From Bacilli bacterium (GTDB lineage Bacteria; Bacillota_I; Bacilli_A; RF39; UBA660), in assembly GCA_017542465.1 (NCBI GenBank), contig JAFXXB010000040.1, positions 24,301 to 88,300 on the forward strand: a stretch of DNA of 64,000 bases, in the 5' to 3' direction. This document shows positions 539-52,192 of the stretch, one piece after another (position 1 is the first letter of the stretch; every line of letters begins with the position of its first letter). The position numbers were made by a program, and so were the translations under genes. Below the pieces are notes generated by a model, which was not told where the DNA came from, made no database searches, and saw only the letters and a program-made list of their open reading frames with translations.

Positions 539-589
539 ATTGTTTGTTATAATTAATATGTGAAAATATAATAAAGAATATGTGGTTTT

Positions 590-1720
590 ATGATTAAAGA
601 GAATAAGAAGATTTACAATATAATTGTTTTAGTGTTATTAAGTGTATTTGTAATATTATATAGGCTTGTATTATATAAACACTTATTAGCATATTCAGAG
701 GCTATAAGTACAGCATTTATAATGTTATTTGCTGGATTATTAGTTTTATTTTATGGATTTAGAAAACATAATAGTATTAAATGGACAGATAAATTCTTTA
801 AAGCCACATTCTTTGTAATCATATTATATTTCATTGTTATATATTTATTTGGTATATCGTCTGGATTCTTAAGGAATGCTTATTCACTTAAAATAGATGC
901 TATTATTGATAATATGATATACCCTGTTCTTATTATAATATTTACTGAAATAGCTAGATATGTATTTATTAAAGGAAATAAGAATAATTTATTATTAATA
1001 ATATTATTCAATATTCTATTAATTATATTTGATACTAACTTCTATATTAAGATGGATAGTTTTGGATCATTTAATAGTACATTTGAATTTATAACTATTA
1101 CAATTATTCCAATCGCTTTAAAGAATATTGTATGTTCTTACGCTGCTTATTATAGTGATTATAAATCAGCATTAGTTTATAGAGGATTTACTGAATTATA
1201 TATTTATCTAGCACCTATTCAACCAAATCTAGATAAGTTATTTGTAAGTATATCATCTATGATGTTACCATTTATGTTATTAATGTTATATTCAGGAATA
1301 ATAGAAAATCAAAGTGAATCACATAATAAGAGTAAGAAGGTTATGAGATTATCTGATATACCATTGTTCTTACTTGTAGTATTAATGGTATGCGTTATAT
1401 TTGGAATTGGACCATTTAAATTAATAGGTATTGAAACTCCATCAATGACTCCTAAGTATAAAGTAGGAGATGGTGTTATAGTAGATAAGAATGTTAATAA
1501 AGATGAACTTAAAGTAGGAGATGTTATCGCTTATTATGATAAGGATAATAAACTAATAGTTCATAGAATTATTAATATAAATATAGATGAAAGTTTTACT
1601 ACAAAAGGTGATTATAACAACACTGCTGACAGTGGTTTTGTTAAAAAAGATCAAATATTTGGAATTGTAAGATTTAAAATACCATGGATTGCATATCCAT
1701 CGTTAATATTTAGGAAGTGA
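590..1720 (+). CDS. polytopic membrane domain fused to a C-terminal SipW/archaeal-type (S26B) signal peptidase I domain
   Basis: The N-terminal ~250 aa contain about 7-8 hydrophobic segments. The C-terminal ~110 aa carry SipW-type motifs: 'IETPSMTPKYKVGDGVIV' (catalytic Ser box), 'LIVHRII' (His box), 'TKGDYNNTADS' and 'KIPWIAYP'. Confidence 0.75.
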   Translation: MIKENKKIYNIIVLVLLSVFVILYRLVLYKHLLAYSEAISTAFIMLFAGLLVLFYGFRKHNSIKWTDKFFKATFFVIILYFIVIYLFGISSGFLRNAYSLKIDAIIDNMIYPVLIIIFTEIARYVFIKGNKNNLLLIILFNILLIIFDTNFYIKMDSFGSFNSTFEFITITIIPIALKNIVCSYAAYYSDYKSALVYRGFTELYIYLAPIQPNLDKLFVSISSMMLPFMLLMLYSGIIENQSESHNKSKKVMRLSDIPLFLLVVLMVCVIFGIGPFKLIGIETPSMTPKYKVGDGVIVDKNVNKDELKVGDVIAYYDKDNKLIVHRIININIDESFTTKGDYNNTADSGFVKKDQIFGIVRFKIPWIAYPSLIFRK

Positions 1721-1724
1721 TATT

Positions 1725-2285
1725 ATGAATAATGATTTAAAGATTATATTATTAGGTTTTCTTGCATGTATTACATTAGTTGCATCATTTATCTTATTCT
1801 TTAATGATGTTATATCTTATTCTATTCTATGTGCTGCAGTTACAGTATTATTAATAGGTTATTTAATATATACAGTATTTTCAGGTAAAAGCAACAAAGC
1901 TGAATATGATGCTAAATTAAAGAATGTATTAAAGACTTATGATGAAGATATCATATATGCTGAAACTGACTATGAGATTAAAGAAAAGAATGTGTTATTT
2001 GTTAAGTCATTAGATGATTTGCTTGTAGCTACTTCAATAACCGGAACACCTATAATATATATTGCTGAAGATGAAGCATCAACATTCTTAGTTAAAAATG
2101 ATGAAGACTTATTAGCTTATATATTAAAGGTTAATCCAAATAAAGAAACTAAGTATGAAAAAATATTAAAAGATAAAATTGAAAATAATAAGAAGAATGT
2201 TAATTCTTTATTAAATAATATTACTAAGGAAACAATCATAGTAATCGATAATAAATCATATAAAGTTAGTCCAGTAGCTAAATAA
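1725..2285 (+). CDS. membrane-anchored partner protein (2 TM plus a soluble domain), paralog of 5896-6327
   Basis: RBS AGGAAGTGA lies 4 nt after the upstream stop. There are two N-terminal hydrophobic helices. 'LKTYDEDIIYAETDYEIKEKNVLFVKSLDDLL...TPIIYIAEDEASTFLV' aligns with 'LSKYGDYLVELETVPNITTKQIIYVQSFKDIL...KPIYYLQGKDTVDFIFI' of 5896-6327. Confidence 0.6.
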   Translation: MNNDLKIILLGFLACITLVASFILFFNDVISYSILCAAVTVLLIGYLIYTVFSGKSNKAEYDAKLKNVLKTYDEDIIYAETDYEIKEKNVLFVKSLDDLLVATSITGTPIIYIAEDEASTFLVKNDEDLLAYILKVNPNKETKYEKILKDKIENNKKNVNSLLNNITKETIIVIDNKSYKVSPVAK

Positions 2286-2314
2286 ATATGATATAATTTA
2301 AGTAGGTGAATGAA

Positions 2315-3163
2315 ATGAGAAAGTTAAAGAGATTTTTTAAGAATTTACCAAAGAATATAAAGGAATTTTTTGTTAAGTCTAAAGATACATTAGTTAATTT
2401 CTTTAGTAAAAAAGAATATGATAGAAAGCAATTAGGCGTTATCTCATTAATTGGTGTTGGCATAGTTGCTTTAGTTGTAATAATTATATTCTTATTTATG
2501 TCTAAGAATATTTCTCAAATAGAAAGAAATACAATTATGGATAAGAGTACAGTTTATTCATATTACTTAGAATATGCTGAAGATAAGAAAAAAGGAACTG
2601 ATGATTATATAATATTTGCATTAAAGTATTCAACAATTAATAATCATAAAAGTGGATTATCAAGTGCAGAATTAAGCAAATTAATATCTGAAATCTTTAA
2701 TGTTAAGATTGATGAAGATACTATAAGAAAAAATGGTATATCTGAAAAAATGTTAAAGGAGAATATTATGTATTCACCATCAGATGATGTATATGACATG
2801 ATTACTCCTAAGGTAGATCCTAAAACTATAGCTGAAACTCAAGTAAGTTATTATAAATTTAAAAAGTTATCAAGAATTAACTCTAAAAAGTATAGCATTG
2901 TATATCAAAAATATATAATTGAAGATCCATATAAAGTATTAAACTATTATATAGATAAAAACAATCAATCAGATAGAATATATGATATAGCACCTTATAG
3001 AAATTATCTTGTAGGTTCTGATTCGACTGTTAGATTTAAAGAATCTATTATAGCTGATGATATTCAAAACTATGCTAAGAAAGATAAAAAATATAAAGTA
3101 ACTTACATAGTTGATGGAGATAAAGTATTAATTGATAAAGTAAGTAGGTGTACATTATGTTAA
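2315..3163 (+). CDS. bitopic membrane protein of unknown function, paralog of 3157-3891
   Basis: I moved the start to ATG 2315, behind the RBS AGTAGGTGA. There is a single TM ('VISLIGVGIVALVVIIIFLF'). The ectodomain aligns with the next gene ('DDYIIFALKY' vs 'ESYVMFALDY'; 'YSIVYQKYIIEDPYKVLNYYIDKNN' vs 'SYVVMYDRYVVNKPYNIYNYYLTKDN'). Confidence 0.6.
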   Translation: MRKLKRFFKNLPKNIKEFFVKSKDTLVNFFSKKEYDRKQLGVISLIGVGIVALVVIIIFLFMSKNISQIERNTIMDKSTVYSYYLEYAEDKKKGTDDYIIFALKYSTINNHKSGLSSAELSKLISEIFNVKIDEDTIRKNGISEKMLKENIMYSPSDDVYDMITPKVDPKTIAETQVSYYKFKKLSRINSKKYSIVYQKYIIEDPYKVLNYYIDKNNQSDRIYDIAPYRNYLVGSDSTVRFKESIIADDIQNYAKKDKKYKVTYIVDGDKVLIDKVSRCTLC

Positions 3164-3891
3164 AGAAGTTATTTACAACAAAGTTAGTTATTATACCTAT
3201 ATCTATATTAGCTATTATATTAATTGTAGGTGGATTTTTATTATTAGATAATAAATGGATGACTCCTCTTGAAAAGATTAAAGTAAATGATGAAGCAGCA
3301 AGAGTTGTTTATAACATCGATGAAGTAATTGAAAGAGATTATTCAGATGAATCATATGTAATGTTTGCTTTAGATTATCTTAAACAAGAAAAGAATAGTA
3401 ATACATTTACTGTTTATGAAGTAAGAGATATTATTAATGAATTCTTCACAGTTAATTTTGATATCGATAAACTAAACAATATTGGTATTACACCATATAT
3501 GGTTGAAAGAGGTGTAACTTTTGATACAAGTTCAATGAGTTATACCTACAATAAAACATATACTCGTGTAGATATAAGTGAAATGAAAATAGTTAAATAT
3601 AATATTAAAAAAATTACTAAAAAGAGTAAGACATCATACGTAGTTATGTATGATAGATATGTAGTTAACAAACCATATAATATCTATAATTACTATTTAA
3701 CTAAAGATAATAGCCAAGAGAAAATAGATGCAATATCTAAGTATCTTAAAGGCGATGGACCAGTTAATAAAGTAAAAGATTTAATTAATAAGGATAATAT
3801 TAATGAGATTGGTTCTGTTGAAGGTAAATTAAAGGTAACATATAAAGTTATTGATAATAAATTAAAAGTCTCAAAAATAGAGAGAAAATAA
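3157..3891 (+). CDS. bitopic membrane protein of unknown function, paralog of 2315-3163
   Basis: ATG 3157 sits behind the same AGTAGGTG RBS and overlaps the upstream stop by 7 nt. There is a single N-terminal TM. Paralogy is described under 2315-3163. Confidence 0.6.
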   Translation: MLKKLFTTKLVIIPISILAIILIVGGFLLLDNKWMTPLEKIKVNDEAARVVYNIDEVIERDYSDESYVMFALDYLKQEKNSNTFTVYEVRDIINEFFTVNFDIDKLNNIGITPYMVERGVTFDTSSMSYTYNKTYTRVDISEMKIVKYNIKKITKKSKTSYVVMYDRYVVNKPYNIYNYYLTKDNSQEKIDAISKYLKGDGPVNKVKDLINKDNINEIGSVEGKLKVTYKVIDNKLKVSKIERK

Positions 3892-3920
3892 AAGTAAATA
3901 TATTCATTTACTTTTTTTTT
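3891..3920 (+). terminator. rho-independent terminator
   Basis: AAAGTAAAT-atattc-ATTTACTTT followed by a T-run of more than 8. Confidence 0.7.
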
Positions 3921-3942
3921 ATTTGTTATCGTGATAAAATAA

Positions 3943-4659
3943 ATGTATGGTGAGAATATGGAAAGTATAGGAAGAGATAACATTAAGGTTACAAACTTTG
4001 TTGTTAATGAACAATTAAAAGATAATAATCGTTTTAGACCACTATATATCGTTGGTTTTATTTTGATTATAACTTTTTTAACTGTAGCTTATGCATCTTT
4101 AGCAATTAACTATGGTATTAAAATACATGATCCTCGTCCTATAGTTGAACCTGATATAAAAGGTGATGATGTTATACCGGAGCCAGAACCAACACCACCA
4201 CCAACACCAACACCAAAACCATACATACCTCCAACTCCACCTAGAAAATTGGATTGGAGAATTCAATTCGAAAACTTAAGTGTATTTGCTGGTTCTAAAG
4301 AACCTATAAAAGCAGCTGAAATAGATTCTACAAAGACTACAGTTAATTTTGAAGTTAAATTAGAATTACCTGGAGATTATTATAAGTTCCAAGTTGATAT
4401 GGTAAATGATGGTAATTATAATGCTAAGATATATGAAATAATTCGTGACCAATTAACACCTGATCAGGCTAAATATTTAGATTTAAATATTACATATGAT
4501 GATGGTACTGAAATTAAAGTTGATGATGAATTACCAAATAAAACAAGAAAGACTATGATTGTTGAAATAAAATTTAAAGAAGATGTAACAGCAGAAGATT
4601 TACCTCAAACTGATACTGATGTTAATATTTCATATCAAGTTGTATATGTAGAAAAGTAG
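3943..4659 (+). CDS. exported or anchored beta-rich protein with a Pro-rich stalk; putative SipW-type substrate
   Basis: There is a long N-region, then the TM 'LYIVGFILIITFLTVAYA|SLAINYG'. A Pro-rich linker follows ('PEPEPTPPPTPTPKPYIPPTPP'). The C-terminal domain has 'LPGDYYKFQVDMVNDGNYNAKI', shared with 6446-7027. An alternative start is ATG 3958. Confidence 0.6.
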   Translation: MYGENMESIGRDNIKVTNFVVNEQLKDNNRFRPLYIVGFILIITFLTVAYASLAINYGIKIHDPRPIVEPDIKGDDVIPEPEPTPPPTPTPKPYIPPTPPRKLDWRIQFENLSVFAGSKEPIKAAEIDSTKTTVNFEVKLELPGDYYKFQVDMVNDGNYNAKIYEIIRDQLTPDQAKYLDLNITYDDGTEIKVDDELPNKTRKTMIVEIKFKEDVTAEDLPQTDTDVNISYQVVYVEK

Positions 4660-4667
4660 GTATATAT

Positions 4668-5909
4668 ATGGAAAGTAAAAATGGGTTAAAAAACTTTGGC
4701 TATTTGATAATTATATGCTTATATGCAGTGTTATATTTATTTTATCTAGCACCTAAGATACCTAATTATTGTTCTTTGATTAATATGGGATTTATTATTC
4801 TATTAACAATAACAGGATTCTTCCTATATAAATTTGAAAAGAATGATATGACTAAGGTAAAAAGAAAGATTATTATTGAAGTATTTGTAGGAATGATAGT
4901 ATACTTCGCTATGATATATTCACTAGGACTAGTAACTGGATATGTTAAAAACATATATACTACTAGATTCTTAGGAATAATTTCTAATATCTTAATACCT
5001 TTAGTAAGTGCGGTAGGTATAGAATTATTTAGATATATGTATATGAGAAGTAATAAGATGAGTAAGTTTTCAATATTTCTTGGAACATTATTCTTATCTA
5101 TTATTGATTGTTTACTATTATATTATATAGTTGATGCAACTAAATATGGATATTTCATATTTGGAACAACTGTAATATTACCTGTAATATTTAAAAATAT
5201 ATTATTATCTTATTTAACTATAAAAGAAGGATGGGAAGCATGTTTAATCTATTCTGTCCCAATGACTATATATGGATTTATAGTACCTGTTATTCCTAAT
5301 TTAGGTGATTATTTAATAAGTATTATAAATGTTACATTCCCTTCTATGTTGATAATATATGCATCAAGACTGATAACTGATGATTTAATTGATCAAGAGA
5401 TTAAGAGATTATCATCAAGTGTAGAATTATCAGATAAAGAAGAAGTAGAGTATCGTAAGAGAAGTAAGAAGTTTAATATATTTAAAATATTCTTAATTGA
5501 TATTCCTTTAATTGAACTAATAGCAGTTGTTGTTATACTAGTATCTGGATTATTTGTATATCATGCAATTGGTGTTGATACATCAGCAGTTGCTGAGGTA
5601 GCTCAAAGAGGAGATGCAGTTATCATCTTTAAGGGTTATAAACAATCTGATTATAACGTTAATGATATTGTTATATATAAAGCAAATAATAAATATATAA
5701 TTGATAGAATATCTCGTAAACAAGATGAAGGTAATGATAAAGCTTCATTATATGTTAAGAAAGAGATAGATCAAGATAGAAATATAGAATATCGTAATAT
5801 AAGTGAAGAGATAGTAGGTGTCTACACTGGATTTAAACTTCCTAAGATAGCTTATCCAACTATATGGATTAGAGATTATTTAAGCGGAGGTTCAAATGAA
5901 CAAAAGTAG
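4668..5909 (+). CDS. polytopic membrane protein with a degenerate (probably inactive) SipW-like C-terminal domain
   Basis: The N-terminal polytopic domain is alignable with 590-1720. The C-terminal domain aligns with the SPase domain but reads 'VDTSAVAEVAQRGDAVII' where the SMxP Ser box should be and 'YIIDRIS' where the His box should be. The KGDxN box is absent. 'KLPKIAYP' is retained. Confidence 0.7.
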   Translation: MESKNGLKNFGYLIIICLYAVLYLFYLAPKIPNYCSLINMGFIILLTITGFFLYKFEKNDMTKVKRKIIIEVFVGMIVYFAMIYSLGLVTGYVKNIYTTRFLGIISNILIPLVSAVGIELFRYMYMRSNKMSKFSIFLGTLFLSIIDCLLLYYIVDATKYGYFIFGTTVILPVIFKNILLSYLTIKEGWEACLIYSVPMTIYGFIVPVIPNLGDYLISIINVTFPSMLIIYASRLITDDLIDQEIKRLSSSVELSDKEEVEYRKRSKKFNIFKIFLIDIPLIELIAVVVILVSGLFVYHAIGVDTSAVAEVAQRGDAVIIFKGYKQSDYNVNDIVIYKANNKYIIDRISRKQDEGNDKASLYVKKEIDQDRNIEYRNISEEIVGVYTGFKLPKIAYPTIWIRDYLSGGSNEQK

Positions 5910-6327
5910 TTTTAAAAAGATACTATCTAAATATGGTGATTATTTAGTTGAATTAGAAACAGTTCCTAATATAACAACTAAACAAATAATCTATGTTCAA
6001 TCATTTAAAGATATTCTAAATGTTAAAGAAAAAACAAATAAACCAATTTATTATTTACAAGGTAAGGATACAGTAGATTTTATATTTATAGATAAGAATG
6101 TTTATATTTATATAATTAAAGATGATGAAAATATTAAGTCTGTATTTGAAGATTACAATGCAGAAATGAATGATTATGAATTAATCAAAGGCATTGAACA
6201 AGACACAATTATACAATGTGGTGATGGTTCTGAGTATAAAGTATCTTTAATAACTGATACTAAGAGTAGTAAAGAAAATAAAGTAATTCAAACTGATATT
6301 ACATTACCTAAAAAGAGACATAAATAA
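5896..6327 (+). CDS. soluble partner protein, paralog of the C-terminal domain of 1725-2285
   Basis: A GGAGG RBS is present and the gene overlaps the upstream gene by 14 nt. Alignment to 1725-2285 includes 'GSEYKVSLI' vs 'NKSYKVSPV'. There is no TM. Confidence 0.6.
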   Translation: MNKSSFKKILSKYGDYLVELETVPNITTKQIIYVQSFKDILNVKEKTNKPIYYLQGKDTVDFIFIDKNVYIYIIKDDENIKSVFEDYNAEMNDYELIKGIEQDTIIQCGDGSEYKVSLITDTKSSKENKVIQTDITLPKKRHK

Positions 6328-6338
6328 TGTCTCTTTTA
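6311..6338 (+). terminator. rho-independent terminator
   Basis: AAAGAGACAT-aaata-ATGTCTCTTT overlapping the stop codon, followed by TTATATTT. Confidence 0.7.
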
Positions 6339-6388
6339 TATTTATTGTAAAATTAGTTGTCAAATATACATTTTCTTATCATTTATTT

Positions 6389-6417
6389 TACACACAGTAA
6401 AATGTAAATGCTATAAT
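6389..6417 (+). promoter_or_regulatory. putative sigma-70-type promoter with extended -10
   Basis: TACACA, 17 nt, then TGcTATAAT (TATAAT at 6412-6417), about 30 nt upstream of the ATG at 6446. Confidence 0.5.
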
Positions 6418-6445
6418 GTAATTAAGAAGAAAAGGAGTGTATTGT

Positions 6446-7027
6446 ATGAAAAGAGAAAATGTAATGTTTAAGAAGAGATATTTATTCGTTATGTTATTTG
6501 TTGCACTTATTGCAGGTATTTCATTTGGTTACGCTAACTTAAGAACAACATTATCTATAAACGGTACTACAACAATATCTAAAGTAACTTGGGGAGTTGT
6601 ATTTGACAACAAAGTAATTACTGAAGGATCTTATGATCCGGTTGATTCAACTACAGGTGAAAAGATTAATACTGTTGAATTATCTGATAATGATACAACA
6701 TTAACTTATAATATCACTTTGGCAGAACCTGGCGATTTCTATGAGTTCAAGATTAATGTACATAACACTGGTACATTAAAAGCTAAACTTGATGCTATAA
6801 GACGTGGTGATGATGATACTGAATTATCTCCACGTATGGCTCAATATTTCAATTATACTGAAACAGGTTTACAAGCTAAAGACTCTGTATTAAATCCAGA
6901 TGGATCTTATACTATTACTATTAGATTAGATTACTTATCTACTGTAACACCAGAACAATTACCTACAAGTTCTGATGTAACAACATTCAAGAGAACTATT
7001 CATTTAGATTATATTCAAGATAAATAA
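6446..7027 (+). CDS. exported beta-rich protein; putative SipW-type substrate (paralogous fold to 3943-4659)
   Basis: ATG 6446 follows the RBS AAAAGGAGTG. The signal-anchor is 'KKRYLFVMLFVALIAGISFGYA|NLRTTLSINGTTTI'. 'EPGDFYEFKINVHNTGTLKAKL' matches 'LPGDYYKFQVDMVNDGNYNAKI' of 3943-4659. Both proteins end with a '...PEQLP/AEDLPQT...' segment. Confidence 0.65.
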   Translation: MKRENVMFKKRYLFVMLFVALIAGISFGYANLRTTLSINGTTTISKVTWGVVFDNKVITEGSYDPVDSTTGEKINTVELSDNDTTLTYNITLAEPGDFYEFKINVHNTGTLKAKLDAIRRGDDDTELSPRMAQYFNYTETGLQAKDSVLNPDGSYTITIRLDYLSTVTPEQLPTSSDVTTFKRTIHLDYIQDK

Positions 7028-7028
7028 T

Positions 7029-7052
7029 AACCTTAGAGAAATCTAAGGTTTT
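7029..7052 (+). terminator. rho-independent terminator (first of a tandem pair)
   Basis: AACCTTAGA-gaaa-TCTAAGGTT followed by TTCTCATTTTT. Confidence 0.7.
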
Positions 7053-7090: not shown

Positions 7091-7143
7091 GCATTGTGAA
7101 ATCTTTTATGCTATTATAACTCCCAAAAAAAGGAGATGTGCAT

Positions 7144-8157
7144 ATGAGTGATTATGAGACATCATTACACAACTTAGTATTGTATTTATCTGGTGATGAA
7201 TATGATAAGGAAACAATTGAAAAAGATATTGATATCTTTTTTGATAATTCTAGTTATTTTTCAAATAAATATAACGATGTATATAAAGGAATATATAGTT
7301 TAATTGCTAAGAAGATTAATGAATATAAAGTAATATCATCTGCACATCTAAGTGCATTGAAAGGTAATAATAACTTTGATTCAATTACAAAATTATATCA
7401 TTTGTATAGATTATATCCTTTTGATTTGAATAATAAAACTGATTTATTATTATTTAGAAAAGTATTTAGAACAAATGACTCATTTGAAATAATAAAGAGA
7501 ATTTTAAAAATAGATAAATTAGGATATGATAATTTAATAGCTAATCCATATGATATTGGTAATATAGAAACAGTATGTGATGCATTAATAGATTATGATA
7601 ATGTATGTGCTGCTGAAAGACATCAATTTTATTACAATCCTGATAGAAGAATATATTCAGATAATGAATGTGAAGAAATGATATATGAGATTAATCAAAG
7701 AATAGTATATAACCAACCAAAAGACTATAAAGAGTTAGATGAAAATGAATTAAAAGGTAAATATGGTGAATATAAAGTTAAAAAGTATTTTGAACATTAT
7801 AATTATATAGTTGATCAAGTATCTAACTATGGGGATGGATACGGTTTTGATATAGCTTTAGTACAAAAAGACTATTCTAAGGTATGTGGAATAGAAGTTA
7901 AAACCACATATGATAGCTATGAAGAAGATCAATTCACAGTATCTAAGACACAATTAAAGAATTTTGAACAAGGTGATACAGTTAGAAATTTCTTTGTTAT
8001 AAGATACTGTATCTCAGAAGATAAATTATATATGATTTTTAAAGAAAATGGTAATTTCTATTGTATAGATCAAGATGGAAATGAACATAAGGTTGAATTA
8101 AATGTTGAAACATTTAAAATAACTAAAACTAAAACAAAGAAAAAGGGGGAAAAATAA
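7144..8157 (+). CDS. DUF3883-like PD-(D/E)xK nuclease-fold protein with an uncharacterised N-terminal domain
   Basis: ATG 7144 lies 8 nt after AGGAG. The C-terminal part reads 'GEYKVKKYFEHYNY...GYGFDIALVQKDYSKVCGIEVKTT...FTVSKTQL', which gives an E...D...ExK pattern as in restriction-endonuclease-like DUF3883 domains. Confidence 0.55.
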   Translation: MSDYETSLHNLVLYLSGDEYDKETIEKDIDIFFDNSSYFSNKYNDVYKGIYSLIAKKINEYKVISSAHLSALKGNNNFDSITKLYHLYRLYPFDLNNKTDLLLFRKVFRTNDSFEIIKRILKIDKLGYDNLIANPYDIGNIETVCDALIDYDNVCAAERHQFYYNPDRRIYSDNECEEMIYEINQRIVYNQPKDYKELDENELKGKYGEYKVKKYFEHYNYIVDQVSNYGDGYGFDIALVQKDYSKVCGIEVKTTYDSYEEDQFTVSKTQLKNFEQGDTVRNFFVIRYCISEDKLYMIFKENGNFYCIDQDGNEHKVELNVETFKITKTKTKKKGEK

Positions 8158-8158
8158 A

Positions 8159-8362
8159 ATGAAATACAATCCTGGAGATTTAGATCTAGAAAAAGTAAGA
8201 TTATTCTTGCAAGATTATTATGAATCAGCATATTTTGTTGGTATACCAGAAGCTAAGGAAGATTGGGAATTTGTTAAAAATGCTTCTGATGAAGAATTAT
8301 TAGAATTTATTAACAATTCTTCTTTTAATTATGAATTGTATAAAAATAAAACAAGAAAATAA
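8159..8362 (+). CDS. small acidic hypothetical protein, tightly coupled to 7144-8157
   Basis: The ATG lies 1 nt after the upstream TAA, with a GGGGGA RBS inside the upstream 3' end. The product is 67 aa with no TM and no motif I recognise. Confidence 0.5.
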   Translation: MKYNPGDLDLEKVRLFLQDYYESAYFVGIPEAKEDWEFVKNASDEELLEFINNSSFNYELYKNKTRK

Positions 8363-8418: not shown

Positions 8419-9420
8419 ATGAAGAAGAATAAGACTGAAACTAAGAATTATATTAATTTACTTAAAGTAATTGCTATGTTGATGGTTGTAGCGATGCATG
8501 TAATATCTAAAGCTATGCCTAACTATCCTATAGATACTTTTATGTATAAGTTTATGTTATTTATAGATATACTCTTAAGAGCATCAGTTCCTATTTTTAT
8601 TCTAATAAGTGGATATTTATTACTTAATAAAAAATATAAATTAATAGATATTATATATAGATTATTAAAGTATTATATATTCTTTATTATATTTAATAGT
8701 TTATATATGTTATTAGATATGTCAGTTTTAAATAATAATCCTATAACTACTGATGGTATAAAGAATATTTTGATAAGTTCATTAACACTTAAGAGTATAT
8801 ATCAAATGTGGTATTTCCAATTAATCTTATTAACTTATGCATCAGTTCCTATATTCCAATTATTAATAGGCAAGAATAGTAAGTTATTAGATACAATAAC
8901 ACTTGTTGTATTAATACTATTATTCCAATTAATTCCTTGGTTTATACCTACATTCTATAATAACTACACATACTATTTAGTATTCTTAACTTATTTCTTC
9001 TTAGGTTATTATTTAAAGAAGTATGAGCTTAAATATATGAATATATTATTATTTGTATTATTCATAATTGGTTATGCCTTTACTTATATTAAATCTGTTA
9101 ATTTAGATCATAGTTATTATTATTTTAATTTTACTTTCTTTAATACAATGTTTGTAGCTTTATTCATATATAATGTATTCTCTAAATTTGAAAGTATATT
9201 AAAGAATGAAAAAGTAAATGCTACAATTAAGTATTTATCTAGTTATAACTTTTCCATATTTATATTCCATGGTTTAGTTATAGGTTTATTAACTAAGTTA
9301 AATGTAATAAATATATATGAATATAGTAATGTTTTTATGATTTTAGTAAATACTATTCTTGTATATTTATTTACTCTAGTTATATCTATAGGATTAAAGA
9401 AATTATTTAAAGAAATTTAA
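8419..9420 (+). CDS. acyltransferase family 3 membrane protein (O-acyltransferase)
   Basis: There are about 10 hydrophobic helices. The N-terminus 'INLLKVIAMLMVVAMHV' has the conserved His typical of the acyltransferase_3 family. Confidence 0.7.
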   Translation: MKKNKTETKNYINLLKVIAMLMVVAMHVISKAMPNYPIDTFMYKFMLFIDILLRASVPIFILISGYLLLNKKYKLIDIIYRLLKYYIFFIIFNSLYMLLDMSVLNNNPITTDGIKNILISSLTLKSIYQMWYFQLILLTYASVPIFQLLIGKNSKLLDTITLVVLILLFQLIPWFIPTFYNNYTYYLVFLTYFFLGYYLKKYELKYMNILLFVLFIIGYAFTYIKSVNLDHSYYYFNFTFFNTMFVALFIYNVFSKFESILKNEKVNATIKYLSSYNFSIFIFHGLVIGLLTKLNVINIYEYSNVFMILVNTILVYLFTLVISIGLKKLFKEI

Positions 9421-9480
9421 TAATTATTTATTGATTAATAATAATTATAGTGATATATTTTAGATAGAAGGATGATATGA

Positions 9481-9903
9481 ATGAAAAAGAAAACAGTTAT
9501 AATCATATCAACATTGTTGTTTACTTTAATAATGGGTTTAATATTTGCATGGAGGATTTATTTAATCACTCAGGATACCACAGGTATTTATTTATTACCT
9601 ACTGAGGATTTCTTAAGTTTCTTCTTAAATTATTTACCTGTATTAACAATAGTAATTACTGTTATTACTACATATGCTCGTAGAAAGATGGGATTGGTAT
9701 TCTCTGTAATAGCTTCAATCATGTCTGTTTTATCATTGGTTGTTGAATTAGTTATATTTATATGTAGATCATTAGATTTCAATGCTCCAGTTCCAAAGGC
9801 ATGCTTACCTTGGCTTGATATACCAATTATTATTATATGTGTAATATTATTTATTATTAAATTTAAAATATATACATTACCAAAGACAATTAAATTTAAA
9901 TAG
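9481..9903 (+). CDS. small integral membrane protein (about 4 TM), unknown function
   Basis: A GAAGGATGA RBS is present and there are four hydrophobic segments. I recognise no motif. Confidence 0.55.
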   Translation: MKKKTVIIISTLLFTLIMGLIFAWRIYLITQDTTGIYLLPTEDFLSFFLNYLPVLTIVITVITTYARRKMGLVFSVIASIMSVLSLVVELVIFICRSLDFNAPVPKACLPWLDIPIIIICVILFIIKFKIYTLPKTIKFK

Positions 9904-9911
9904 GAGACTAT

Positions 9912-11306
9912 ATGAAAAAGAAAGGCAATATTAAATATAAAATTATAAATTTTAGTATTATATTGTTTGTATTAATTATATGTGCTTATGTCATATATAG
10001 TCTTTTTTTTATGAATAAATTTAAAATTGATGATTTTGAAAAGGACTTAGTTATCAACTATGGAAGTGAATTTAAGTCTAGTCATAAAGTTTGTTATGGA
10101 AATAAAAATAAATGTGATGAGATAACTCCAACAATTGAAGGTGAAGTTGATTATAATACAATAGGTAAATATGAAGTTAAGTATACATATCATTATAATA
10201 AGAAAGAACTAGTGTTGGATCAAATTGTAGAAGTAAAAGATATATCTGGACCAGTTATAAATATTAAAAATGAATCTGAAATAATAGCTTGTCCAAATGG
10301 TAAAAATAATATAGAGATAGAAGTTACAGATAATTATGATTCTGAAGTCACTAATATTAATCAAAGATTAGAAGATAATAAGGTTATAATTGAAGCAATA
10401 GATTCAAATAATAATAAAACAATAACAGAAATAGAAGTAACAGTTAAAGATGAAGAAAAACCTAAGATAACTATAAATGGTAGCAAGAATTTAACACATA
10501 TTATAGGTACTAAATATTCTGATAAAGGCGCAACAGCCACAGATAACTGTGATGATAAAGTAGAAGTTAAAACATCAGGTGAAGTAAATAAAGATAAAGA
10601 AGGTACTTATACAATTACTTATTCTGCTGAGGATTCATCAGGAAATAAAAGTGAAGCAACAAGAAAAGTAACAGTTAAAGAAAAGACCCCTGGAACTAGA
10701 GTTATATATTTAACATTTGATGATGGACCATCTAAATATACAAATGAATTATTAGATGTATTAAAAAAATATAATGTTAAAGCAACATTCTTTGTTACAT
10801 GTAAGGGTGATGATTCAATTATTCAAAGAGAATATAATGAAGGACATACAGTAGCACTTCATACATGCTCTCATGTATATTCTCAAGTATATGCATCATA
10901 TGATGCTTATTTTAAAGATTTAAATAATGTTAAAGCAAGAGTTAAAAGATTAACAGGTTATAATGCAAATATTGTAAGATTTCCGGGTGGTACATCTAAT
11001 GCTAGATCTATAAGTCCAAATATATCTATGAAAACACTTGCAAGTAAAGTATTAAATAATGGATATTATTATTTTGATTGGAATATATCAAGTGGTGATG
11101 CAGGAGAAACAACATCGACTGATGTAGTATATTCTAATGTAGTTAATCATCTAAAATCTGGTACTTCTGTAGTATTACAACATGATACAAAAGGATATTC
11201 AGTAAAAGCTGTTGAACGTATAATTCAATATGGATTAGAAAATGGTTATACCTTTGAAAGATTAACTCCATCATCACCTAAAATAAGACATGGGGCTGGC
11301 CATTAG
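9912..11306 (+). CDS. membrane-anchored polysaccharide/peptidoglycan deacetylase (NodB domain) with Ig-like repeats
   Basis: An N-terminal TM is followed by DUF5011/Ig-like repeats ('KYSDKGATATDNCDDKVEVKTSGEVNKDKEGTYTITYSAEDSSGNKSEATRKVTV'). The NodB motifs are 'IYLTFDDGPS', 'HTVALHTCSH' and 'RFPGG'. Confidence 0.85.
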   Translation: MKKKGNIKYKIINFSIILFVLIICAYVIYSLFFMNKFKIDDFEKDLVINYGSEFKSSHKVCYGNKNKCDEITPTIEGEVDYNTIGKYEVKYTYHYNKKELVLDQIVEVKDISGPVINIKNESEIIACPNGKNNIEIEVTDNYDSEVTNINQRLEDNKVIIEAIDSNNNKTITEIEVTVKDEEKPKITINGSKNLTHIIGTKYSDKGATATDNCDDKVEVKTSGEVNKDKEGTYTITYSAEDSSGNKSEATRKVTVKEKTPGTRVIYLTFDDGPSKYTNELLDVLKKYNVKATFFVTCKGDDSIIQREYNEGHTVALHTCSHVYSQVYASYDAYFKDLNNVKARVKRLTGYNANIVRFPGGTSNARSISPNISMKTLASKVLNNGYYYFDWNISSGDAGETTSTDVVYSNVVNHLKSGTSVVLQHDTKGYSVKAVERIIQYGLENGYTFERLTPSSPKIRHGAGH

Positions 11307-13324: not shown

Positions 13325-13370
13325 ATATATTTATAATGATATAATATAAATGAAATAAAGGGTGATAAGA

Positions 13371-15488
13371 ATGTATTGCGGTAATTGTGGAAACAAGAAT
13401 GAAGAAGGAGCTTTATTTTGTTCTAACTGTGGAACAAAAATAGAAAAGCTAGTTGAAGTAAAAGAAGAAAAGAAAGAGGAAGTTAAGGTAGTTGAACCAG
13501 TTCAACCTGTACAACCACAACCTCCGGTTCAACCAGTAAATAATAATTCTGGAATGCCTATGTGGCAAAAACTTGTTATTGTTGGTTTATTATTATTTTT
13601 AATATTTATATTAATTATAATAATAGTAGTTGTAGCTATATTAAAACCTGGTAATAATCCGACTAAAAAGAGAGGCAACCAAGCAGATACTCGTACAGTT
13701 ATGATTTATATAGATGGAAGTAACTTAGAGACTGATGCTGGTATTGTTACAAGTGAATTAAATGCCATTAAACCTGAAACCATAGATTTAGATAAAGTTA
13801 ATATCTTATTATATACAGGTGGAACATCTAAATGGCATAACTTTATTAAGAATAATGAAAATGCTATTTATAAATTAACTAAAGATGGATTTGAGAAGGT
13901 TGAAACATATCAAAAGAAAAATATGGGTGATCCTTCTACACTTTCAGAATTCTTAAATTATGCTTATGATAATTATAGTGCTGGACATTATAATTTAGTT
14001 TTATATAATCATGGTGGAGCTATAGATGGTGCAATATATGATGATTTTACTCGTGATAACTTAACACTTGAAGATTTCCATAAAGCATTAAAAGATAGTA
14101 GATTTAATGAAAATAATAAGATGGATGCTGTAATATTCAGAACTTGTTTAAACGGTACTCTTGAAGTAGCAAGTGTATTTGATGATTATGCAGATTATAT
14201 AGTATTCTCAGAAGAAATTACTTTAGGATCAGGAATGTCTAATGTATTAGGATATTTCTTAAATGGAATTGATTCTACATCTGATGGAGCTAAGATAGGT
14301 GAAAAGTTTATTGATGGATATAATAAACAAATGGAAGATATAGATATTCTTGGTACTCAAGCTGTAACTTATTCAATTATTGATTTATCTAAAGTTAAAC
14401 CTTTAATAAATAAATTAGATAGTTATATGACTACAATAGATTTAAAGAATAATTATAAAGAAATATCAACAATTAGAAATGGATTATATCAATATGGTAA
14501 AGTTGAACCATCATATGATACTATTGATTTAAAAGAATTTATAAAAGAAGTTAAACCATATGCTACAGGAGATGCAGATGATTTAATAAAGAGTATAGAT
14601 GAAGCTATAGTTAAGAATAATACTAACTTATCTAAGTCTCATGGTTTATCTGTTTACTTCCCTTATAATGGTAAAGCACAAATAATTCAAAGATTTATTA
14701 ATGTATATAATAAATTAGAGTTCTCTAAGAACTATCAATCATTCATTAGTTCATTCATTACTGCTAAGGGTCAAACATCATCATTTAATTATAACTTAAC
14801 AACTAATGAATCAACTGTTACTAATGATAAAGAAGTAACATTACAATTAACAGATGAACAAAAGAGTAATATTGTAAGAAGTGCTTACTATGTATTTAGA
14901 AGAGAAGAAGAAAAAGATAGAAAACAATATTACCAAATGGTATATGCATCTAATAATTCAACAATTGATAATGGTGTAGTATCGACTCACTTTAATAATA
15001 AACTTGTAACAATAAGGGAAGAAGGAGATACAGAATATCAATACATATGTGTTATAGATGAAATAAATGATAATAACAGCAAGAAATCAGTAGGTGCTAC
15101 TATTATAGATACTGATGAAGATGTATTAAGTGATAGTAGAAGAGTATCAGCTGATTTACTTATTGAAGATCATGATGGAACTCCTAAGTTTGGTAAGATG
15201 GAATTGATGTCTAGAGATGAAAGAGTGCAAGGAGTTTTATATGATACTTCTAAATATGAAAAAATCCAAATAATGAAGACTTCACCTAAAGTATTAGATG
15301 ATAAAGGTAAAGTAATGGATAACAGTAAATGGACATTCCCTAAAGTAAGATATGGTTTTGAAGGATCATTAGATAAGATTAAACTTGAGTATACCGGATT
15401 AGATGATGGAGAATTCTATGTATTATTCTTCTTATTTGACTACAATGGAAATAGATATTTATCTGATTTAATAAAGGTTGGTGAATAA
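13371..15488 (+). CDS. membrane-anchored clostripain-like (C11) cysteine peptidase with an N-terminal cytoplasmic zinc ribbon
   Basis: The zinc ribbon is 'MYCGNCGNKNEEGALFCSNCG'. A Pro/Gln linker ('PVQPVQPQPPVQPV') and a TM follow. The C11 motifs are 'RTVMIYIDGSNLE', 'LYNHGGAIDG' (His) and 'VIFRTCLNG' (Cys). Confidence 0.75.
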   Translation: MYCGNCGNKNEEGALFCSNCGTKIEKLVEVKEEKKEEVKVVEPVQPVQPQPPVQPVNNNSGMPMWQKLVIVGLLLFLIFILIIIIVVVAILKPGNNPTKKRGNQADTRTVMIYIDGSNLETDAGIVTSELNAIKPETIDLDKVNILLYTGGTSKWHNFIKNNENAIYKLTKDGFEKVETYQKKNMGDPSTLSEFLNYAYDNYSAGHYNLVLYNHGGAIDGAIYDDFTRDNLTLEDFHKALKDSRFNENNKMDAVIFRTCLNGTLEVASVFDDYADYIVFSEEITLGSGMSNVLGYFLNGIDSTSDGAKIGEKFIDGYNKQMEDIDILGTQAVTYSIIDLSKVKPLINKLDSYMTTIDLKNNYKEISTIRNGLYQYGKVEPSYDTIDLKEFIKEVKPYATGDADDLIKSIDEAIVKNNTNLSKSHGLSVYFPYNGKAQIIQRFINVYNKLEFSKNYQSFISSFITAKGQTSSFNYNLTTNESTVTNDKEVTLQLTDEQKSNIVRSAYYVFRREEEKDRKQYYQMVYASNNSTIDNGVVSTHFNNKLVTIREEGDTEYQYICVIDEINDNNSKKSVGATIIDTDEDVLSDSRRVSADLLIEDHDGTPKFGKMELMSRDERVQGVLYDTSKYEKIQIMKTSPKVLDDKGKVMDNSKWTFPKVRYGFEGSLDKIKLEYTGLDDGEFYVLFFLFDYNGNRYLSDLIKVGE

Positions 15489-15489
15489 T

Positions 15490-16428
15490 ATGTTTTGTAA
15501 TAAATGTGGAAATGAAATAAAAGAAAATGAAAAGTTTTGTAATAAATGTGGTGAAGCAGTAACTGCGCAAAATGCTGCTCAGCCACAAACAACAGAACCA
15601 AAGAAGTCAAATATAGGATTAATAATAGGAATTGTTTTAGGATTATTACTATTATTAATAATTGTAATAATTGCAATTATAGTAGTAGCTTTATTATTTT
15701 TTAGAAATGATAAAAAACAATCAACTGTAACAACAACTACAGGAGAAGTTACAACTACAACAGCTGCAAGCATGGATGATGATAAAAAAGAAGGAAAAGT
15801 AAAAGAATTAGATTTTACTAATGTATCATTTAAACCTGAAGACAATAATGAAGAAACAAAGAATATAGAGTTTGTATCAGGATTCATGGGAAAAGAAGGA
15901 TATCAAGGTGCATCAAGATATGCTTATATTGGTGTAATTAATAAGAATAAAACAAATCAAGACATTTGGATTTATATTAACTATTATAAAGACGGAACAA
16001 GAATTGGATCTGACAGTGCAATAACTTCATTTGTTAAACCAAATGTATTAACTGTTATTGATGTTAATTTAAAACCAAAAGATGAATATGATAAATTTGA
16101 TATCACAGTTAAAACAACTCCTGGGGATAGTTATATGGTAGATGTACCTGTTACAGATAAAAACTTCAAGGCAATAAATACAGATAAAAAGAAAGCTGAT
16201 AGTTATGGTACATTCACAAATGATTCTAAGAATAAAGTATATGGATATGCAGCATGCGCTAGATATAAAGATGATAAATTAGTTTACTTACATAGAGGTT
16301 ATCTAGGAGAAGTTGAAGTAGGTAAAAAGAAAGAATGTACTTGTTATGAAGTGGATTTACCTGAAGGACTTGAATATAATAAAACTGAATGTTCATTATA
16401 TAACGTTTATTACACTGATGGTGAATAG
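15490..16428 (+). CDS. zinc-ribbon / TM / extracellular-domain protein, unknown function
   Basis: ATG 15490 lies 2 nt after the upstream stop. The zinc ribbon is 'MFCNKCGNEIKENEKFCNKCG'. The juxtamembrane segment 'PKKSNIGLIIGIVLGLLLLLII' and a Thr-rich linker follow, then a ~200-aa Cys-containing ectodomain. Confidence 0.65.
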   Translation: MFCNKCGNEIKENEKFCNKCGEAVTAQNAAQPQTTEPKKSNIGLIIGIVLGLLLLLIIVIIAIIVVALLFFRNDKKQSTVTTTTGEVTTTTAASMDDDKKEGKVKELDFTNVSFKPEDNNEETKNIEFVSGFMGKEGYQGASRYAYIGVINKNKTNQDIWIYINYYKDGTRIGSDSAITSFVKPNVLTVIDVNLKPKDEYDKFDITVKTTPGDSYMVDVPVTDKNFKAINTDKKKADSYGTFTNDSKNKVYGYAACARYKDDKLVYLHRGYLGEVEVGKKKECTCYEVDLPEGLEYNKTECSLYNVYYTDGE

Positions 16429-25954: not shown

Positions 25955-25990
25955 AAAATAAAAAAAGTTGTAATTTCTTACAACTTTTTA
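25955..25990 (-). terminator. rho-independent terminator of addA
   Basis: On the - strand: GTTGTAA-gaaa-TTACAAC followed by T7ATTTTTT. The stem includes the addA stop codon. Confidence 0.75.
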
Positions 25991-28900: not shown

Positions 28901-29076
28901 GCTTTTTTAGTAAATGTTAATATTATTAAATCATTTATAGATGTACCATCTTGTACTTCTTTTAAAACTCTTTCTTTAAGTACAAAAGTCTTACCAGATC
29001 CTGCTCCTGCGGAAACGATAATGTTACATCCATTTTTTTCTATTGCTTCTTTTTGTTGTGGTGTTGGATTACTCAT
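25978..29076 (-). CDS. addA: ATP-dependent helicase/nuclease subunit A (AddA/RexA)
   Basis: I moved the start to ATG 29076, behind GAAGGAGA. The N-terminus reads '[29 protein letters not shown]'. UvrD-type motifs are 'ILIDEYQDTN', 'TIHGSKGLEF' and 'RLFYVAITRAKE'. The C-terminal RecB-type nuclease motif is 'HGFIDLLVEYDEHFDIIDYKTN'. Confidence 0.9.
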   Translation of the reverse strand: MSNPTPQQKEAIEKNGCNIIVSAGAGSGKTFVLKERVLKEVQDGTSINDLIILTFTKKAANEMKERIRKILTENNVEDAKYIDSAYISTFDSFAHSLVNKYSYLLDIDKNFNIIDSSIAKTELRNILDEILEDKYEKQDEKYIKLINNLCYKDDEDLRKDIIEIYSKYTNIVNKDKFLNIDSYYTDEFIENKLDEYENNIFDEFNKLIEVFEVFVEHSSDEKTIENNNKVLSLMQSITSLDELIDNYSSIKVSTIKENTYDDKEYIKGIKDSTYTDIYKSLGTQLNYYRKDLKEYYLSTYDDVIELKNIILELDDRMNKFKKEHNSYEFTDIAFKAIELVRNHKDIRNEIKNKTHEILIDEYQDTNDIQDEFISYIENNNLYMVGDIKQSIYGFRNANPKLFKSKYDSYSHNEGGYKIDLTSNFRSRGEVINNINDMFSLIMFDEIGGANYKATHKMEHGKVDYDKNIDKDVDYNLSILNYNNEDKKYKNDLIEAYIIADDIKNKMNRHAYNDDEFKPIRYKDFCILVDTSTRFETLKKVLESKGIPAYIAKGLSIKNDDEIYILKNLITCLTCIKKNEYKEPFKHAYASIARSYIYKMDDQEIYDAIKLRKFKDTDLYIKLKEISNYIDSLSNKEILYKLIDEFDFINKTISVGNIDERLAKLEHFIKQSNDLNKFGMDIYTMEQYFNDIVSSDDDDIQMEIEQSDKDAVTIMTIHGSKGLEFNYVYMPYLATNFMKDRSGKFVIDNELGLLVPFNNDGIDTTFMYKLYKQKQDIETISERIRLFYVAITRAKENFILITDFNDKLINNESIEPHDLLKCKSFRDFVTIIKPYFLNNIKYININELGIKNNLISKKDDYNSLIKPSKDTIDVNELNIDNKVLDNKHFSKPLTSVMTQELKDILDLGTIMHYCFEVYDFNHDNLNDLSIIDEYKNYIKAFLKHDEVKDISNAKIYKEHEIKFKKDGSTYHGFIDLLVEYDEHFDIIDYKTNNIDSPEYKEQLTGYKEYIESRYNKKTNIYLYSIKKDIFKKL

Positions 29077-31435: not shown

Positions 31436-31505
31436 GATTATCACCTATAAATATTATATCATTAAAAAAAGTTAAGTGATTACTTAACTTTCTATAATTA
31501 TTATT

Positions 31506-42545: not shown

Positions 42546-42621
42546 TGCAATTTCATTGTATTTATATGGTCTCTTTGATAAAATTATTATAGTATGGATA
42601 GTAGTAGAGGGACGGGATACT

Positions 42622-51754: not shown

Positions 51755-52192
51755 ATGAAAGTAATATTACTCCAAGATGTTAAGAAACAAGGTAAGAAAG
51801 ATGAAATAATTAATGTTTCAGATGGATATGCCAATAACTTCTTGATTGCTAAGGGCTTAGCTGTACCTTATAATGAAGCTAATAAAAAACAATTAGAAAG
51901 AACTATTAATAAAAGAGAACAAGCTGAAGAAAACTTAATAGAAGAGATGACTCTATTAAAGAATAAATTAGAGAAAACTAGTATTAAGTTTAAAGTTAAA
52001 ACTGGTAAAGATGGAAGAATGTTTGGAACAATAACATCTAAACAAATATGTGATGAATTAAAGAATAAAGGATTTGATATTGATAAGAAAAAGATATCAT
52101 GTGATCATACAATAGAATCACTTGGTACACATGTTGTTAATATTGAATTACATAAGAAGGTAGTTGCCAAGATTAATGTTAATGTAGAATAG
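51755..52192 (+). CDS. rplI: 50S ribosomal protein L9
   Basis: The N-terminus is '[39 protein letters not shown]'. The RBS is TAGGAGGT. Confidence 0.93.

Follow-up and report, generated by a model that had tools for sequence, protein, structure and literature searches.

Fibres of TasA-like subunits joined by donor strands are now regarded as a cross-domain biofilm matrix system. Two questions that it poses are how the subunits are handed over from the membrane to the growing fibre and how the fibre is anchored. Both are touched by the locus described here, which lies at positions 590 to 7,027 of a 64,000-nucleotide stretch (hereafter the window; positions 24,301 to 88,300 of contig JAFXXB010000040.1, assembly GCA_017542465.1) from a Bacilli bacterium of the RF39 lineage. 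Its eight genes encode two fusions of an eight-helix transmembrane (TM) domain with a domain of the signal peptidase I (SPase I) type, a small partner of each fusion, two bitopic paralogues and two beta-rich proteins with predicted export signals. The locus is probably a biogenesis cluster for surface fibre or matrix proteins of the TasA superfamily (AbpX-like) in an uncultured low-GC Bacilli bacterium. An initial annotation of the window had proposed a TasA/SipW-like system with a membrane-welded peptidase; the SPase profile and fold, the synteny and the link to AbpX bear this out.

The nearest described counterpart is the AbpX system. AbpX is a donor-strand fibre subunit of the TasA superfamily with acidic homologues; its loci occur in archaea and in Bacillota/Chloroflexota and are reported with a dedicated SPase I of ten TM helices and with DUF5305 as a putative accessory subunit (preprint of January 2026, bioRxiv 10.64898/2026.01.04.697558). 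The locus under study resembles the AbpX loci in several respects: a predicted subunit of the TasA superfamily whose SPase I signal precedes a putative donor strand at the N-terminus, the acidity of the subunits, a probably dedicated SPase I that is multi-TM and conforms to TIGR02228, the DUF5305 gene, and candidate minor or tip subunits with a pilin module. The sequence similarity to AbpX is marginal (profile E 4.6e-4), and the acidic calcium residue at position +4 is absent here. Unlike in the AbpX loci, DUF5305 lacks its ectodomain, a dead-peptidase module and bitopic paralogues are added, and the hosts are Bacilli represented by gut and rumen metagenome-assembled genomes (MAGs).

Haloarchaeal Tat-fimbriae (tafi) also combine a dedicated SPase I (TafD) with DUF5305 (TafG) in a donor-strand pilin cluster, and some tafi genomes carry duplicated SPase/DUF5305 pairs (PMC11821415, PMC12337348). 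In contrast to the fusions, TafD has an N-terminal peptidase domain, four TM helices and a second external domain; the tafi subunits are Tat-exported, and an inactive peptidase is not reported for tafi (PMC11821415, PMC12337348). For DUF5305, an accessory role beside the signal peptidase has been proposed, and fusions of it to SPase I occur in some cases (PMC11821415, PMC12337348, bioRxiv 10.64898/2026.01.04.697558). Three of the collected loci, assigned to Methanosarcina or Methanobacteriota (L040, L046, L059), encode SPases I of 343-361 aa in which an N-terminal peptidase domain is followed by three to five C-terminal TM helices. This order is the reverse of that in the Bacilli fusions and resembles the published description of TafD.

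Since the AbpX preprint and the tafi papers pair SPase I with DUF5305, the type of system is known, at least bioinformatically; loci combining SPase I, DUF5305 and TasA-like subunits have already been described (bioRxiv 10.64898/2026.01.04.697558, PMC11821415). The term 'uncharacterised' of the initial annotation is thus partly outdated. Descriptions were not found in the literature for a conserved dead-peptidase module with a paired linker subunit, for the role of the membrane domain, for DUF5305 partners reduced to the cytoplasmic domain, for the bitopic paralogues or for a TM domain that carries an invariant E-x-x-R and may descend from CPBP-like proteins.

Three further systems share single traits with the locus. 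In the tapA-sipW-tasA operon of Bacillus subtilis, the gene of an ER-type (endoplasmic reticulum) Ser-His peptidase adjoins that of its substrate subunit, which is of the TasA superfamily. SipW of this operon is ~190 aa long, with one or two TM helices and without the eight-TM domain; DUF5305 is missing from the operon, and TapA has no counterpart in the locus. The eukaryotic signal peptidase complex provides the best structural match of the catalytic domain (SEC11A/C, 7p2p and 7p2q, E ~1e-4) and, likewise, a catalytic subunit working with membrane accessory subunits. Those accessory functions reside in small proteins of their own, which have no relation to the eight-TM domain or to DUF5305, and the complex is general secretory, not dedicated. 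SipA/LepA of Streptococcus pyogenes, a bacterial P-type homologue of signal peptidase serving sortase-mediated covalent pili, lacks the catalytic residues and a polytopic domain; its gene lies in a pilus cluster. Its structure (4n31) is matched at E 5.9e-4, and the title of this PDB entry calls it essential for pilus polymerisation. By analogy, SipA/LepA is the best functional parallel to fusion 2, and it is not an orthologue. The locus raises the question whether fibre assembly makes use of inactive peptidase homologues in systems other than streptococcal pili as well.

The fusion with a predicted active peptidase, its partner and the conserved gene order

A common architecture had been noted for the two fusions and is found in both: TM1-8 are followed by a linker, TM9 and an SPase domain. 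The two align over their full length with 27% identity over ~400 columns (BLAST E 5e-39). NCBIfam TIGR02228, the profile of archaeal/ER-type SPase I, has a cut-off of 51.85 bits, which fusion 1 exceeds with 76.8 bits, while fusion 2 remains below it with 28.2 bits. Fusion 1 carries S285-M-T-P, H325-R and K339-G-D-x-N and retains the conserved S285, H325, D341, N343 and D347; the complete SipW/ER-type signature claimed for this copy, with its Ser, His and KGDxN boxes, is present. An alignment of the fusion family comprised 34 members, down to ~25% identity. S285-M-x-P, H325-R and K-G-D-x-N...D occur in all of them but the second window copy, and the catalytic Ser and His are both found in 21 of 24 tabulated fusions.

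An AlphaFold model of the fusion, computed with the 34-member alignment as input, reached a predicted local distance difference test (pLDDT) of 88. It places TM1-8 at residues 3-245, followed by a disordered charged linker, TM9 at 254-271 and a beta-rich domain. Given the Lys-rich N-terminus and the positively charged loops inside, the peptidase domain would face outward. The best Foldseek matches of the C-terminal domain are SEC11A (7p2p, E 8e-5), SEC11C (7p2q, 1.2e-4) and SipA (4n31, 5.9e-4). Both profile and fold agree with the earlier assignment of this domain to S26B, i.e. to ER/archaeal-type SPase I. On the Bacillus SipW equivalog NF046067, fusion 1 scores 56.7 bits; the cut-off being 190, it is not a SipW orthologue. 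Judged from its sequence, fusion 1 is most likely an ER/archaeal-type SPase I with a predicted Ser-His active site.

The partners had been placed in no named family; this did not hold, as both exceed the gathering score of 29 of Pfam DUF5305 (PF17231; bit scores in Table 1) and are TafG-like. They are hardly similar to each other by BLAST (E 0.16). A well-characterised family with an unrelated role, considered as a danger in the initial annotation, DUF5305 is not. Both window partners lack the DUF5305 ectodomain. The hydropathy scan gives one TM helix for partner 1, whose orthologues score as a two-TM hairpin, and no hydrophobic segment for partner 2. In distant loci (L001, L003, L016 and others), the partners are full-length DUF5305 proteins of 350-400 aa consisting of a TM helix, a ~200-aa ectodomain, a second TM helix and a cytoplasmic alpha/beta domain. 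The short partners of the clade to which the window belongs align to TM2 and the cytoplasmic domain of this long form with 99.6% probability. From the short partners and the TM-free partner 2 it follows that the part of DUF5305 which is always kept is the cytoplasmic domain. Fission of a DUF5305 gene, with the bitopic proteins as the lost ectodomain, was considered and rejected, the hhalign probability of the bitopic family against the full-length partners being 2%.

Hidden Markov models (HMMs) of the components were mapped over 87 loci, and fusions were obtained from ~22 independent loci, again down to ~25% identity. A DUF5305 gene immediately follows 22 of 25 fusion genes; for the other three, the DUF5305 gene has another place within the cluster or is represented by no more than a fragmentary match. 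A beta-family gene immediately precedes 18 of the 24 fusions that could be assessed. The co-occurrence of fusion, DUF5305 and beta family across ~22 independent Bacilli MAG loci answers the check asked for in the initial annotation. Full-length fusions come almost only from gut and rumen MAGs labelled Bacilli, Erysipelotrichaceae or Tenericutes, and the few bins with other labels are suspected to be mislabelled. With an E-value limit of 1e-3, the profile of the N-terminal domain (N-domain) detects 1,636 representative clusters, of which the best 150 are almost all 370-395 aa long. Named examples, such as the variant of Clostridium sp. CAG:433, found on 340 contigs, are annotated just as 'signal peptidase I'. 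A large and abundant gut and rumen Bacilli family thus carries a three-part machine (eight-TM domain, SPase and DUF5305) under this name only.

This annotation, together with the fact that the SPase-domain HMM detects no other SPase gene in the window, would suit a general housekeeping signal peptidase with extra TM helices and incidental proximity to the beta genes. Such a reading is very unlikely: the synteny with DUF5305 and the beta family is tight in ~22 loci, down to 25% identity, the substrates have a bespoke signal motif in common, a dead paralogue is kept within the same cluster, and at least one genome has a separate bacterial-type SPase beside the cluster. The latter (L015, 10539-11024; 161 aa, SGTSMEPTF...GDNR) directly follows the dead-peptidase module, from which it appears that these genomes carry a separate general SPase.

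Other long SPases in the collected loci have low-complexity tails or C-terminal TM helices, and none has an N-terminal polytopic domain. A mobile-element origin was rejected, as tblastn against plasmids and phages matches the peptidase domain alone. The Acetoanaerobium match in this search is a classical locus with SipW, camelysin-like and LPXTG proteins.

Beta-rich subunits: fibre proteins or anchored surface proteins

An exported beta-rich protein had been ascribed to each module. The two proteins are indeed paralogous (E 1e-13), and each has a predicted signal region and a beta-sandwich. Throughout the family, the N-terminus consists of a Lys-rich stretch, one TM helix and a G-[YF]-A motif. 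Of 37 sequences, 35 have G or A at position -3 of the cleavage motif, 34 have Y or F at -2 and 36 have A or S at -1. The motif is followed by x-L-x-x-x-L-x-I-N-G, a strand of alternating hydrophobic residues. The short subunit has the signal with G-Y-A, the donor-like strand NLRTTLSINGTTTI and an acidic beta-sandwich; its predicted mature form has a pI (isoelectric point) of 4.59 and 14.7% D+E, and most members of the family have a mature pI of 4.1-4.7. In its AlphaFold model (pLDDT 85.6), a TM helix and a donor-like strand of low confidence precede a sandwich with pLDDT >90. The linker subunit starts with a 35-aa cytoplasmic tail and a TM helix, and A-Y-A/SLAINYGIKI, a Pro-rich linker of ~45 aa and the beta-sandwich follow. 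A further beta-rich gene cut off at the left edge of the window was considered and discarded, since the frame upstream belongs to the 3' part of a gene for an unrelated protein.

When the profile of the 37 sequences was compared with the PDB, AbpX gave the top matches (9sj2, E 4.6e-4 over 138 profile positions; 9rhp, E 3.6e-3). Residues L6, S7 and L8 of AbpX align with the family positions +6, +7 and +8, so that the mature N-terminus of AbpX corresponds to the predicted cut after G-Y-A. The proteins adjoining ordinary short SipW genes in other loci belong to Pfam Peptidase_M73 (camelysin/TasA) and served as a reference set, which itself matches AbpX and TasA in the PDB. By hhalign, the beta family matches this set with a probability of 96%, compared with 13% and 1% for controls. 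Three elements account for the bulk of the similarity: the signal peptide, the first strand and the strand pair P-G...N-G. With moderate confidence, and on sequence grounds, the beta-rich proteins are placed as AbpX-like members of the TasA superfamily; the analogy to the TasA system, drawn in the initial annotation, is supported through the AbpX profile match.

Several observations weigh against this placement. When the N-termini are removed, the similarity to Peptidase_M73 drops to a probability of 10% (P 0.003; reversed control 0.62). Foldseek of the beta model returns generic beta-sandwiches, with TasA (8aur) at rank 50 (E 0.04, probability 0.63) and AbpX not among the best 50 matches. Eight family members searched against Pfam PF12389 (Peptidase_M73) gave no match at E up to 1-5. 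The calcium-coordinating acidic residue at +4 of AbpX is not conserved, being Thr, Ser or Gln in the family, and position +2 is mostly Leu rather than aromatic (Tyr or Phe in 9 of 37). As for the AbpX loci as a whole, the fusions have nine TM helices vs the ten of the preprint, the TM domains having been compared by description only, and no named AbpX host is among the matches of the genome scan and of the N-domain profile.

These points leave some room for another reading, in which the beta-rich proteins are not fibre subunits and the N-terminal module anchors or sorts monomeric surface proteins and giant adhesins, which the peptidase matures or releases. Several clusters in fact continue with proteins of 463-2,468 aa headed by the same N-terminal signal and beta-module, and the Foldseek matches to generic sandwiches only, the weak core-only similarity to the TasA-like set and the missing calcium-binding residues of AbpX agree with such a role. 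The reading is nevertheless judged improbable. AbpX is the best PDB match, with its donor strand in register with the N-terminal strand of the family, and the monomer model leaves this strand disordered. Acidity is combined in the short subunits with a promoter and a terminator of their own, as is often the case for major pilins. Tip or adhesin subunits with the pilin module are known for AbpX loci (bioRxiv 10.64898/2026.01.04.697558), and the long proteins are accordingly candidate tip or adhesin subunits of this kind in the fibre reading preferred here. In three loci, giant proteins of >1,900 to >2,400 aa run off the locus ends (L005 9703-17107, L006 11321-17119, L007 8764-16146). They begin with the signal and AbpX-like beta-module of the small subunits and are candidate fibre-tip adhesins.

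The eight-TM domain and the inactive module

The initial annotation had allowed for the polytopic domain being a well-known family of another role, and no such family was matched. Pfam, PF02517 included, has no match to the domain in any of the 34 members, and the sequence-level search of the PDB finds no relative. Foldseek gives only two polytopic matches, Rce1 (4cad; probability 0.94, target-normalised template-modelling score 0.48) and SpdC (6u0o; probability 0.93, score 0.42), both borderline with E-values of 0.08-0.3. The only invariant polar residues, E120 and R123 (E-x-x-R), lie in TM4 close to its cytoplasmic end; conservation extends to G88, G92 and a P-x-x-P-N loop. The domain does not carry the CPBP motifs EExxxR, FxxxH and HxxxN/D, E120-x-x-R123 alone being invariant. 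No His is conserved in the 34-member alignment, so that the CPBP catalytic motifs 2 and 3 are absent. The collected loci contain one CPBP-like protein, too few for a profile comparison. A CPBP/CAAX-protease-like fold of the domain is, tentatively and by structural models, a lead rather than a demonstration: the eight-TM bundle, the borderline fold match and the Glu and Arg in TM4 are shared with CPBP proteins, whereas His motifs, a PF02517 match and similarity at the sequence level are missing.

The same fold match could mean that the domain is a divergent glutamate intramembrane protease of the CPBP/Rce1 type, with E120/R123 as active site, which clears the signal peptide or makes a second cut. 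CPBP motif 1 presumably lies in TM4 as well, the number of TM helices is eight, and the domain is conserved even beside the dead SPase. Such activity is quite unlikely: there is no conserved His, Asn or Asp for motifs 2 and 3, PF02517 matches 0 of 34 members, a sequence-level PDB match is lacking, and the E-values and structural scores are borderline. SpdC, one of the two matches, is a non-catalytic scaffold which binds the single TM helix of its partner.

A function of the domain independent of catalysis is indicated by the dead copies. Those known in context are fusion 2 of the window, L008 5275-6420 and L015 8004-9173, all without the catalytic Ser/His pair: Ser285 is changed to Ala or Thr, His325 to Asp or Glu, and the K-G-D-x-N box is degraded. 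In fusion 2 specifically, these positions are Ala and Asp and the KGD.N box is lost. The inactive twin of the initial annotation is therefore catalytically dead by its residues, and the dead form is conserved in other genomes. The three copies are monophyletic and sister to the active clade holding fusion 1. They keep G88, G92, E120, R123 and almost every conserved proline; their N-domains are 35-40% identical, the same range as in active copies (34-43%), and their C-domains are 37-45% identical. The constraint on the eight-TM domain is equal in the dead clade, which argues for its catalysis-independent function. The position of E-x-x-R near the cytoplasmic leaflet and the permanent retention of the DUF5305 cytoplasmic domain would suggest a function at the cytoplasmic or membrane side, e.g. 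docking of the signal-anchor or of the accessory subunit. The representative library also holds N-domain proteins without a detectable complete SPase domain, namely 19 of 219-293 aa and P0157 of 812 aa, which has a C-terminal region of ~500 aa beyond the N-domain. These could be stand-alone eight-TM proteins, other fusions or truncated gene calls.

Module 2 of the window comprises the linker subunit, fusion 2 and partner 2, and its composition recurs. Directly upstream of each dead copy (the window, L008 and L015) lies a distinct, linker-type subtype of subunit with a TM helix, [AM]-Y-A, [SA]-L-A-x-N-x-G-[IV], a linker of low complexity, which in the window is rich in Pro, and a sandwich; a long cytoplasmic tail is present in two of the three. 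A minimal DUF5305 directly follows each dead copy. That fusion 2 and partner 2 are functionless decaying duplicates could be argued from the loss of the catalytic Ser/His and of the TM segments of the partner, and from the faster evolution of the C-domain. Decay is extremely unlikely, as the reading frames are intact in three genomes and in at least three more cluster representatives of the dead clade at <=50% identity (P0090, P0102, P0116), the clade is monophyletic with an N-domain as conserved as in active copies and with conserved C-domain motifs, and the pairing with a distinct subunit subtype is conserved.

The two bitopic proteins, described earlier as paralogues within module 1, are related at E 6e-19. 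Their orthologues are confined to this clade (L006, L008, L015), where they adjoin specialised subunits. The family has no relative in Pfam, NCBIfam or the PDB.

The homologies, the state of the catalytic residues, the synteny and the signal motif are established here. Cleavage, donor-strand polymerisation of the beta subunits and what the eight-TM domain, DUF5305 and module 2 contribute we infer along the following lines. Pre-subunits would be exported with an N-terminal signal-anchor, the short subunit being the likely major one; in the related loci, the giant proteins with the same N-terminal module would become adhesin or tip subunits. Fusion 1 would cut after the conserved G-[YF]-A. This cut would free the amphipathic N-terminal strand for donor-strand complementation between subunits, as in AbpX/TasA. 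The eight-TM domain may serve as a docking platform for the subunit signal-anchor and/or DUF5305, and DUF5305 would be an accessory subunit whose indispensable part here is the cytoplasmic domain. By analogy with the inactive SipA/LepA, module 2 may be a non-cleaving specialisation which holds, chaperones or anchors a subunit that acts as base or adaptor. A plausible A-Y-A cleavage site is still present in the linker-type subunits; this speaks against the notion of an uncleaved anchor and makes it speculative.

A more far-reaching version is doubtful. According to it, a CPBP-derived eight-TM module, non-proteolytic or unconventionally proteolytic, would capture TasA-like signal-anchors and couple them to cytoplasmic DUF5305, and the dead twin, the cytoplasm-only DUF5305 and the linker subunit would form a membrane base that nucleates or anchors the fibre. 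If true, a donor-strand fibre supposed to be chaperone-free would have a dedicated membrane assembly platform widespread in gut Bacilli.

Gene layout and neighbouring genes

All eight open reading frames (ORFs) were confirmed at the positions given in the initial annotation (Table 1). The gene spacing is compatible with the translational coupling proposed for each fusion and its partner: the start of partner 1 is 4 nt past the stop of fusion 1, and that of partner 2 lies 14 nt inside fusion 2, overlapping its stop. The window is very AT-rich (G+C ~25%).

Table 1. Genes and predicted transcription signals of the locus in window coordinates; z scores give hairpin stability relative to shuffled controls
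Feature	Position	Strand	Size or basis
Promoter-like site TTGTTA-17-TATAAT upstream of fusion 1	544..572	+	Consensus scan, 10/12 matches
Fusion 1: eight-TM domain (residues 1-245), linker, TM9, ER/archaeal-type SPase I domain, predicted active	590..1720	+	376 aa
Partner 1: truncated DUF5305, N-terminal TM region and cytoplasmic domain, ectodomain deleted	1725..2285	+	Pfam 32.4 bits
Bitopic paralogue 1: N-terminal TM helix and ~220-aa domain	2315..3163	+	Paralogy E 6e-19
Bitopic paralogue 2	3157..3891	+	Paralogy E 6e-19; 7-nt overlap with the stop of paralogue 1
Weak AT-rich hairpin before a T-run, possible attenuator or terminator	3890-3915 (also given as 3890..3920)	+	dG (folding free energy) -6.1 kcal/mol, z -4.5
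Linker-type beta subunit	3943..4659	+	Beta-family HMM E 1e-58
Fusion 2: same eight-TM domain, catalytically dead SPase-like domain	4668..5909	+	413 aa
Partner 2: DUF5305 cytoplasmic domain only, no TM segment	5896..6327	+	Pfam 32.7 bits
Intrinsic-terminator-like hairpin overlapping the stop codon of partner 2	6311..6337	+	Consensus scan; dG -12.4 kcal/mol, z -6.4
Extended -10 promoter-like site TACACA-17-TG-TATAAT before the short beta gene	6389..6417	+	Consensus scan, 10/12, TG present
Short AbpX-like beta subunit, candidate major fibre subunit	6446..7027	+	Best PDB match of family profile AbpX 9sj2
Terminator-like hairpin closing the locus	7029..7050	+	Consensus scan; dG -10.8 kcal/mol, z -3.9

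The promoter-like site before fusion 1 is weak evidence, because the regional count of such sites is no higher than in shuffled sequence. A strong ribosome-binding site, AAAGGAG, precedes the ATG of the short subunit. All three hairpins precede T-runs. Of the terminators proposed initially, those at 6311 and 7029 proved solid; the one at 3891 is weak and was not detected by the consensus terminator scan. Since this hairpin is weak and lies ~28 nt before the next start, transcription units 1 and 2 may be joined by read-through.

Directly downstream of the locus, a 339-aa ORF (7138-8157, +) has no significant family match (PriCT_1 at E 0.009 only). Its C-terminus (GYGFDIALV...IEVKTT) resembles a restriction-endonuclease-like NOV_C/DUF3883 motif. 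A coupled ORF of 67 aa follows (8159-8362, +). The next genes, just past the locus (8419-11306, +), serve envelope modification: one product is a membrane acyltransferase (Acyl_transf_3), the other a polysaccharide deacetylase that carries bacterial surface Ig-like domains. Such genes fit a walled Gram-positive host. Farther on, the gene of a C11 (clostripain-family) peptidase whose N-terminus bears a zinc-ribbon (13362-15488, +) overlaps that of a second zinc-ribbon protein with a low-complexity region (15478-16428, +). An AddA/AddB-like pair with UvrD helicase and PD-(D/E)XK nuclease domains lies on the opposite strand (25978-31444, -) and coincides with the sole stretch of negative GC skew in the window (~24-34 kb).

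Repeats of the SpaA (prealbumin-like) and MucBP types give a 3,019-aa ORF (42556-51615, +) the look of a giant surface adhesin. At its C-terminal end, however, ~180 residues match the HUP domain with which the tRNA methyltransferase MnmA begins. This match suggests that two adjacent genes are read through in frame or that the assembly is faulty or a frameshift has occurred; the ORF at 51755-52192 may contain the remainder of mnmA.

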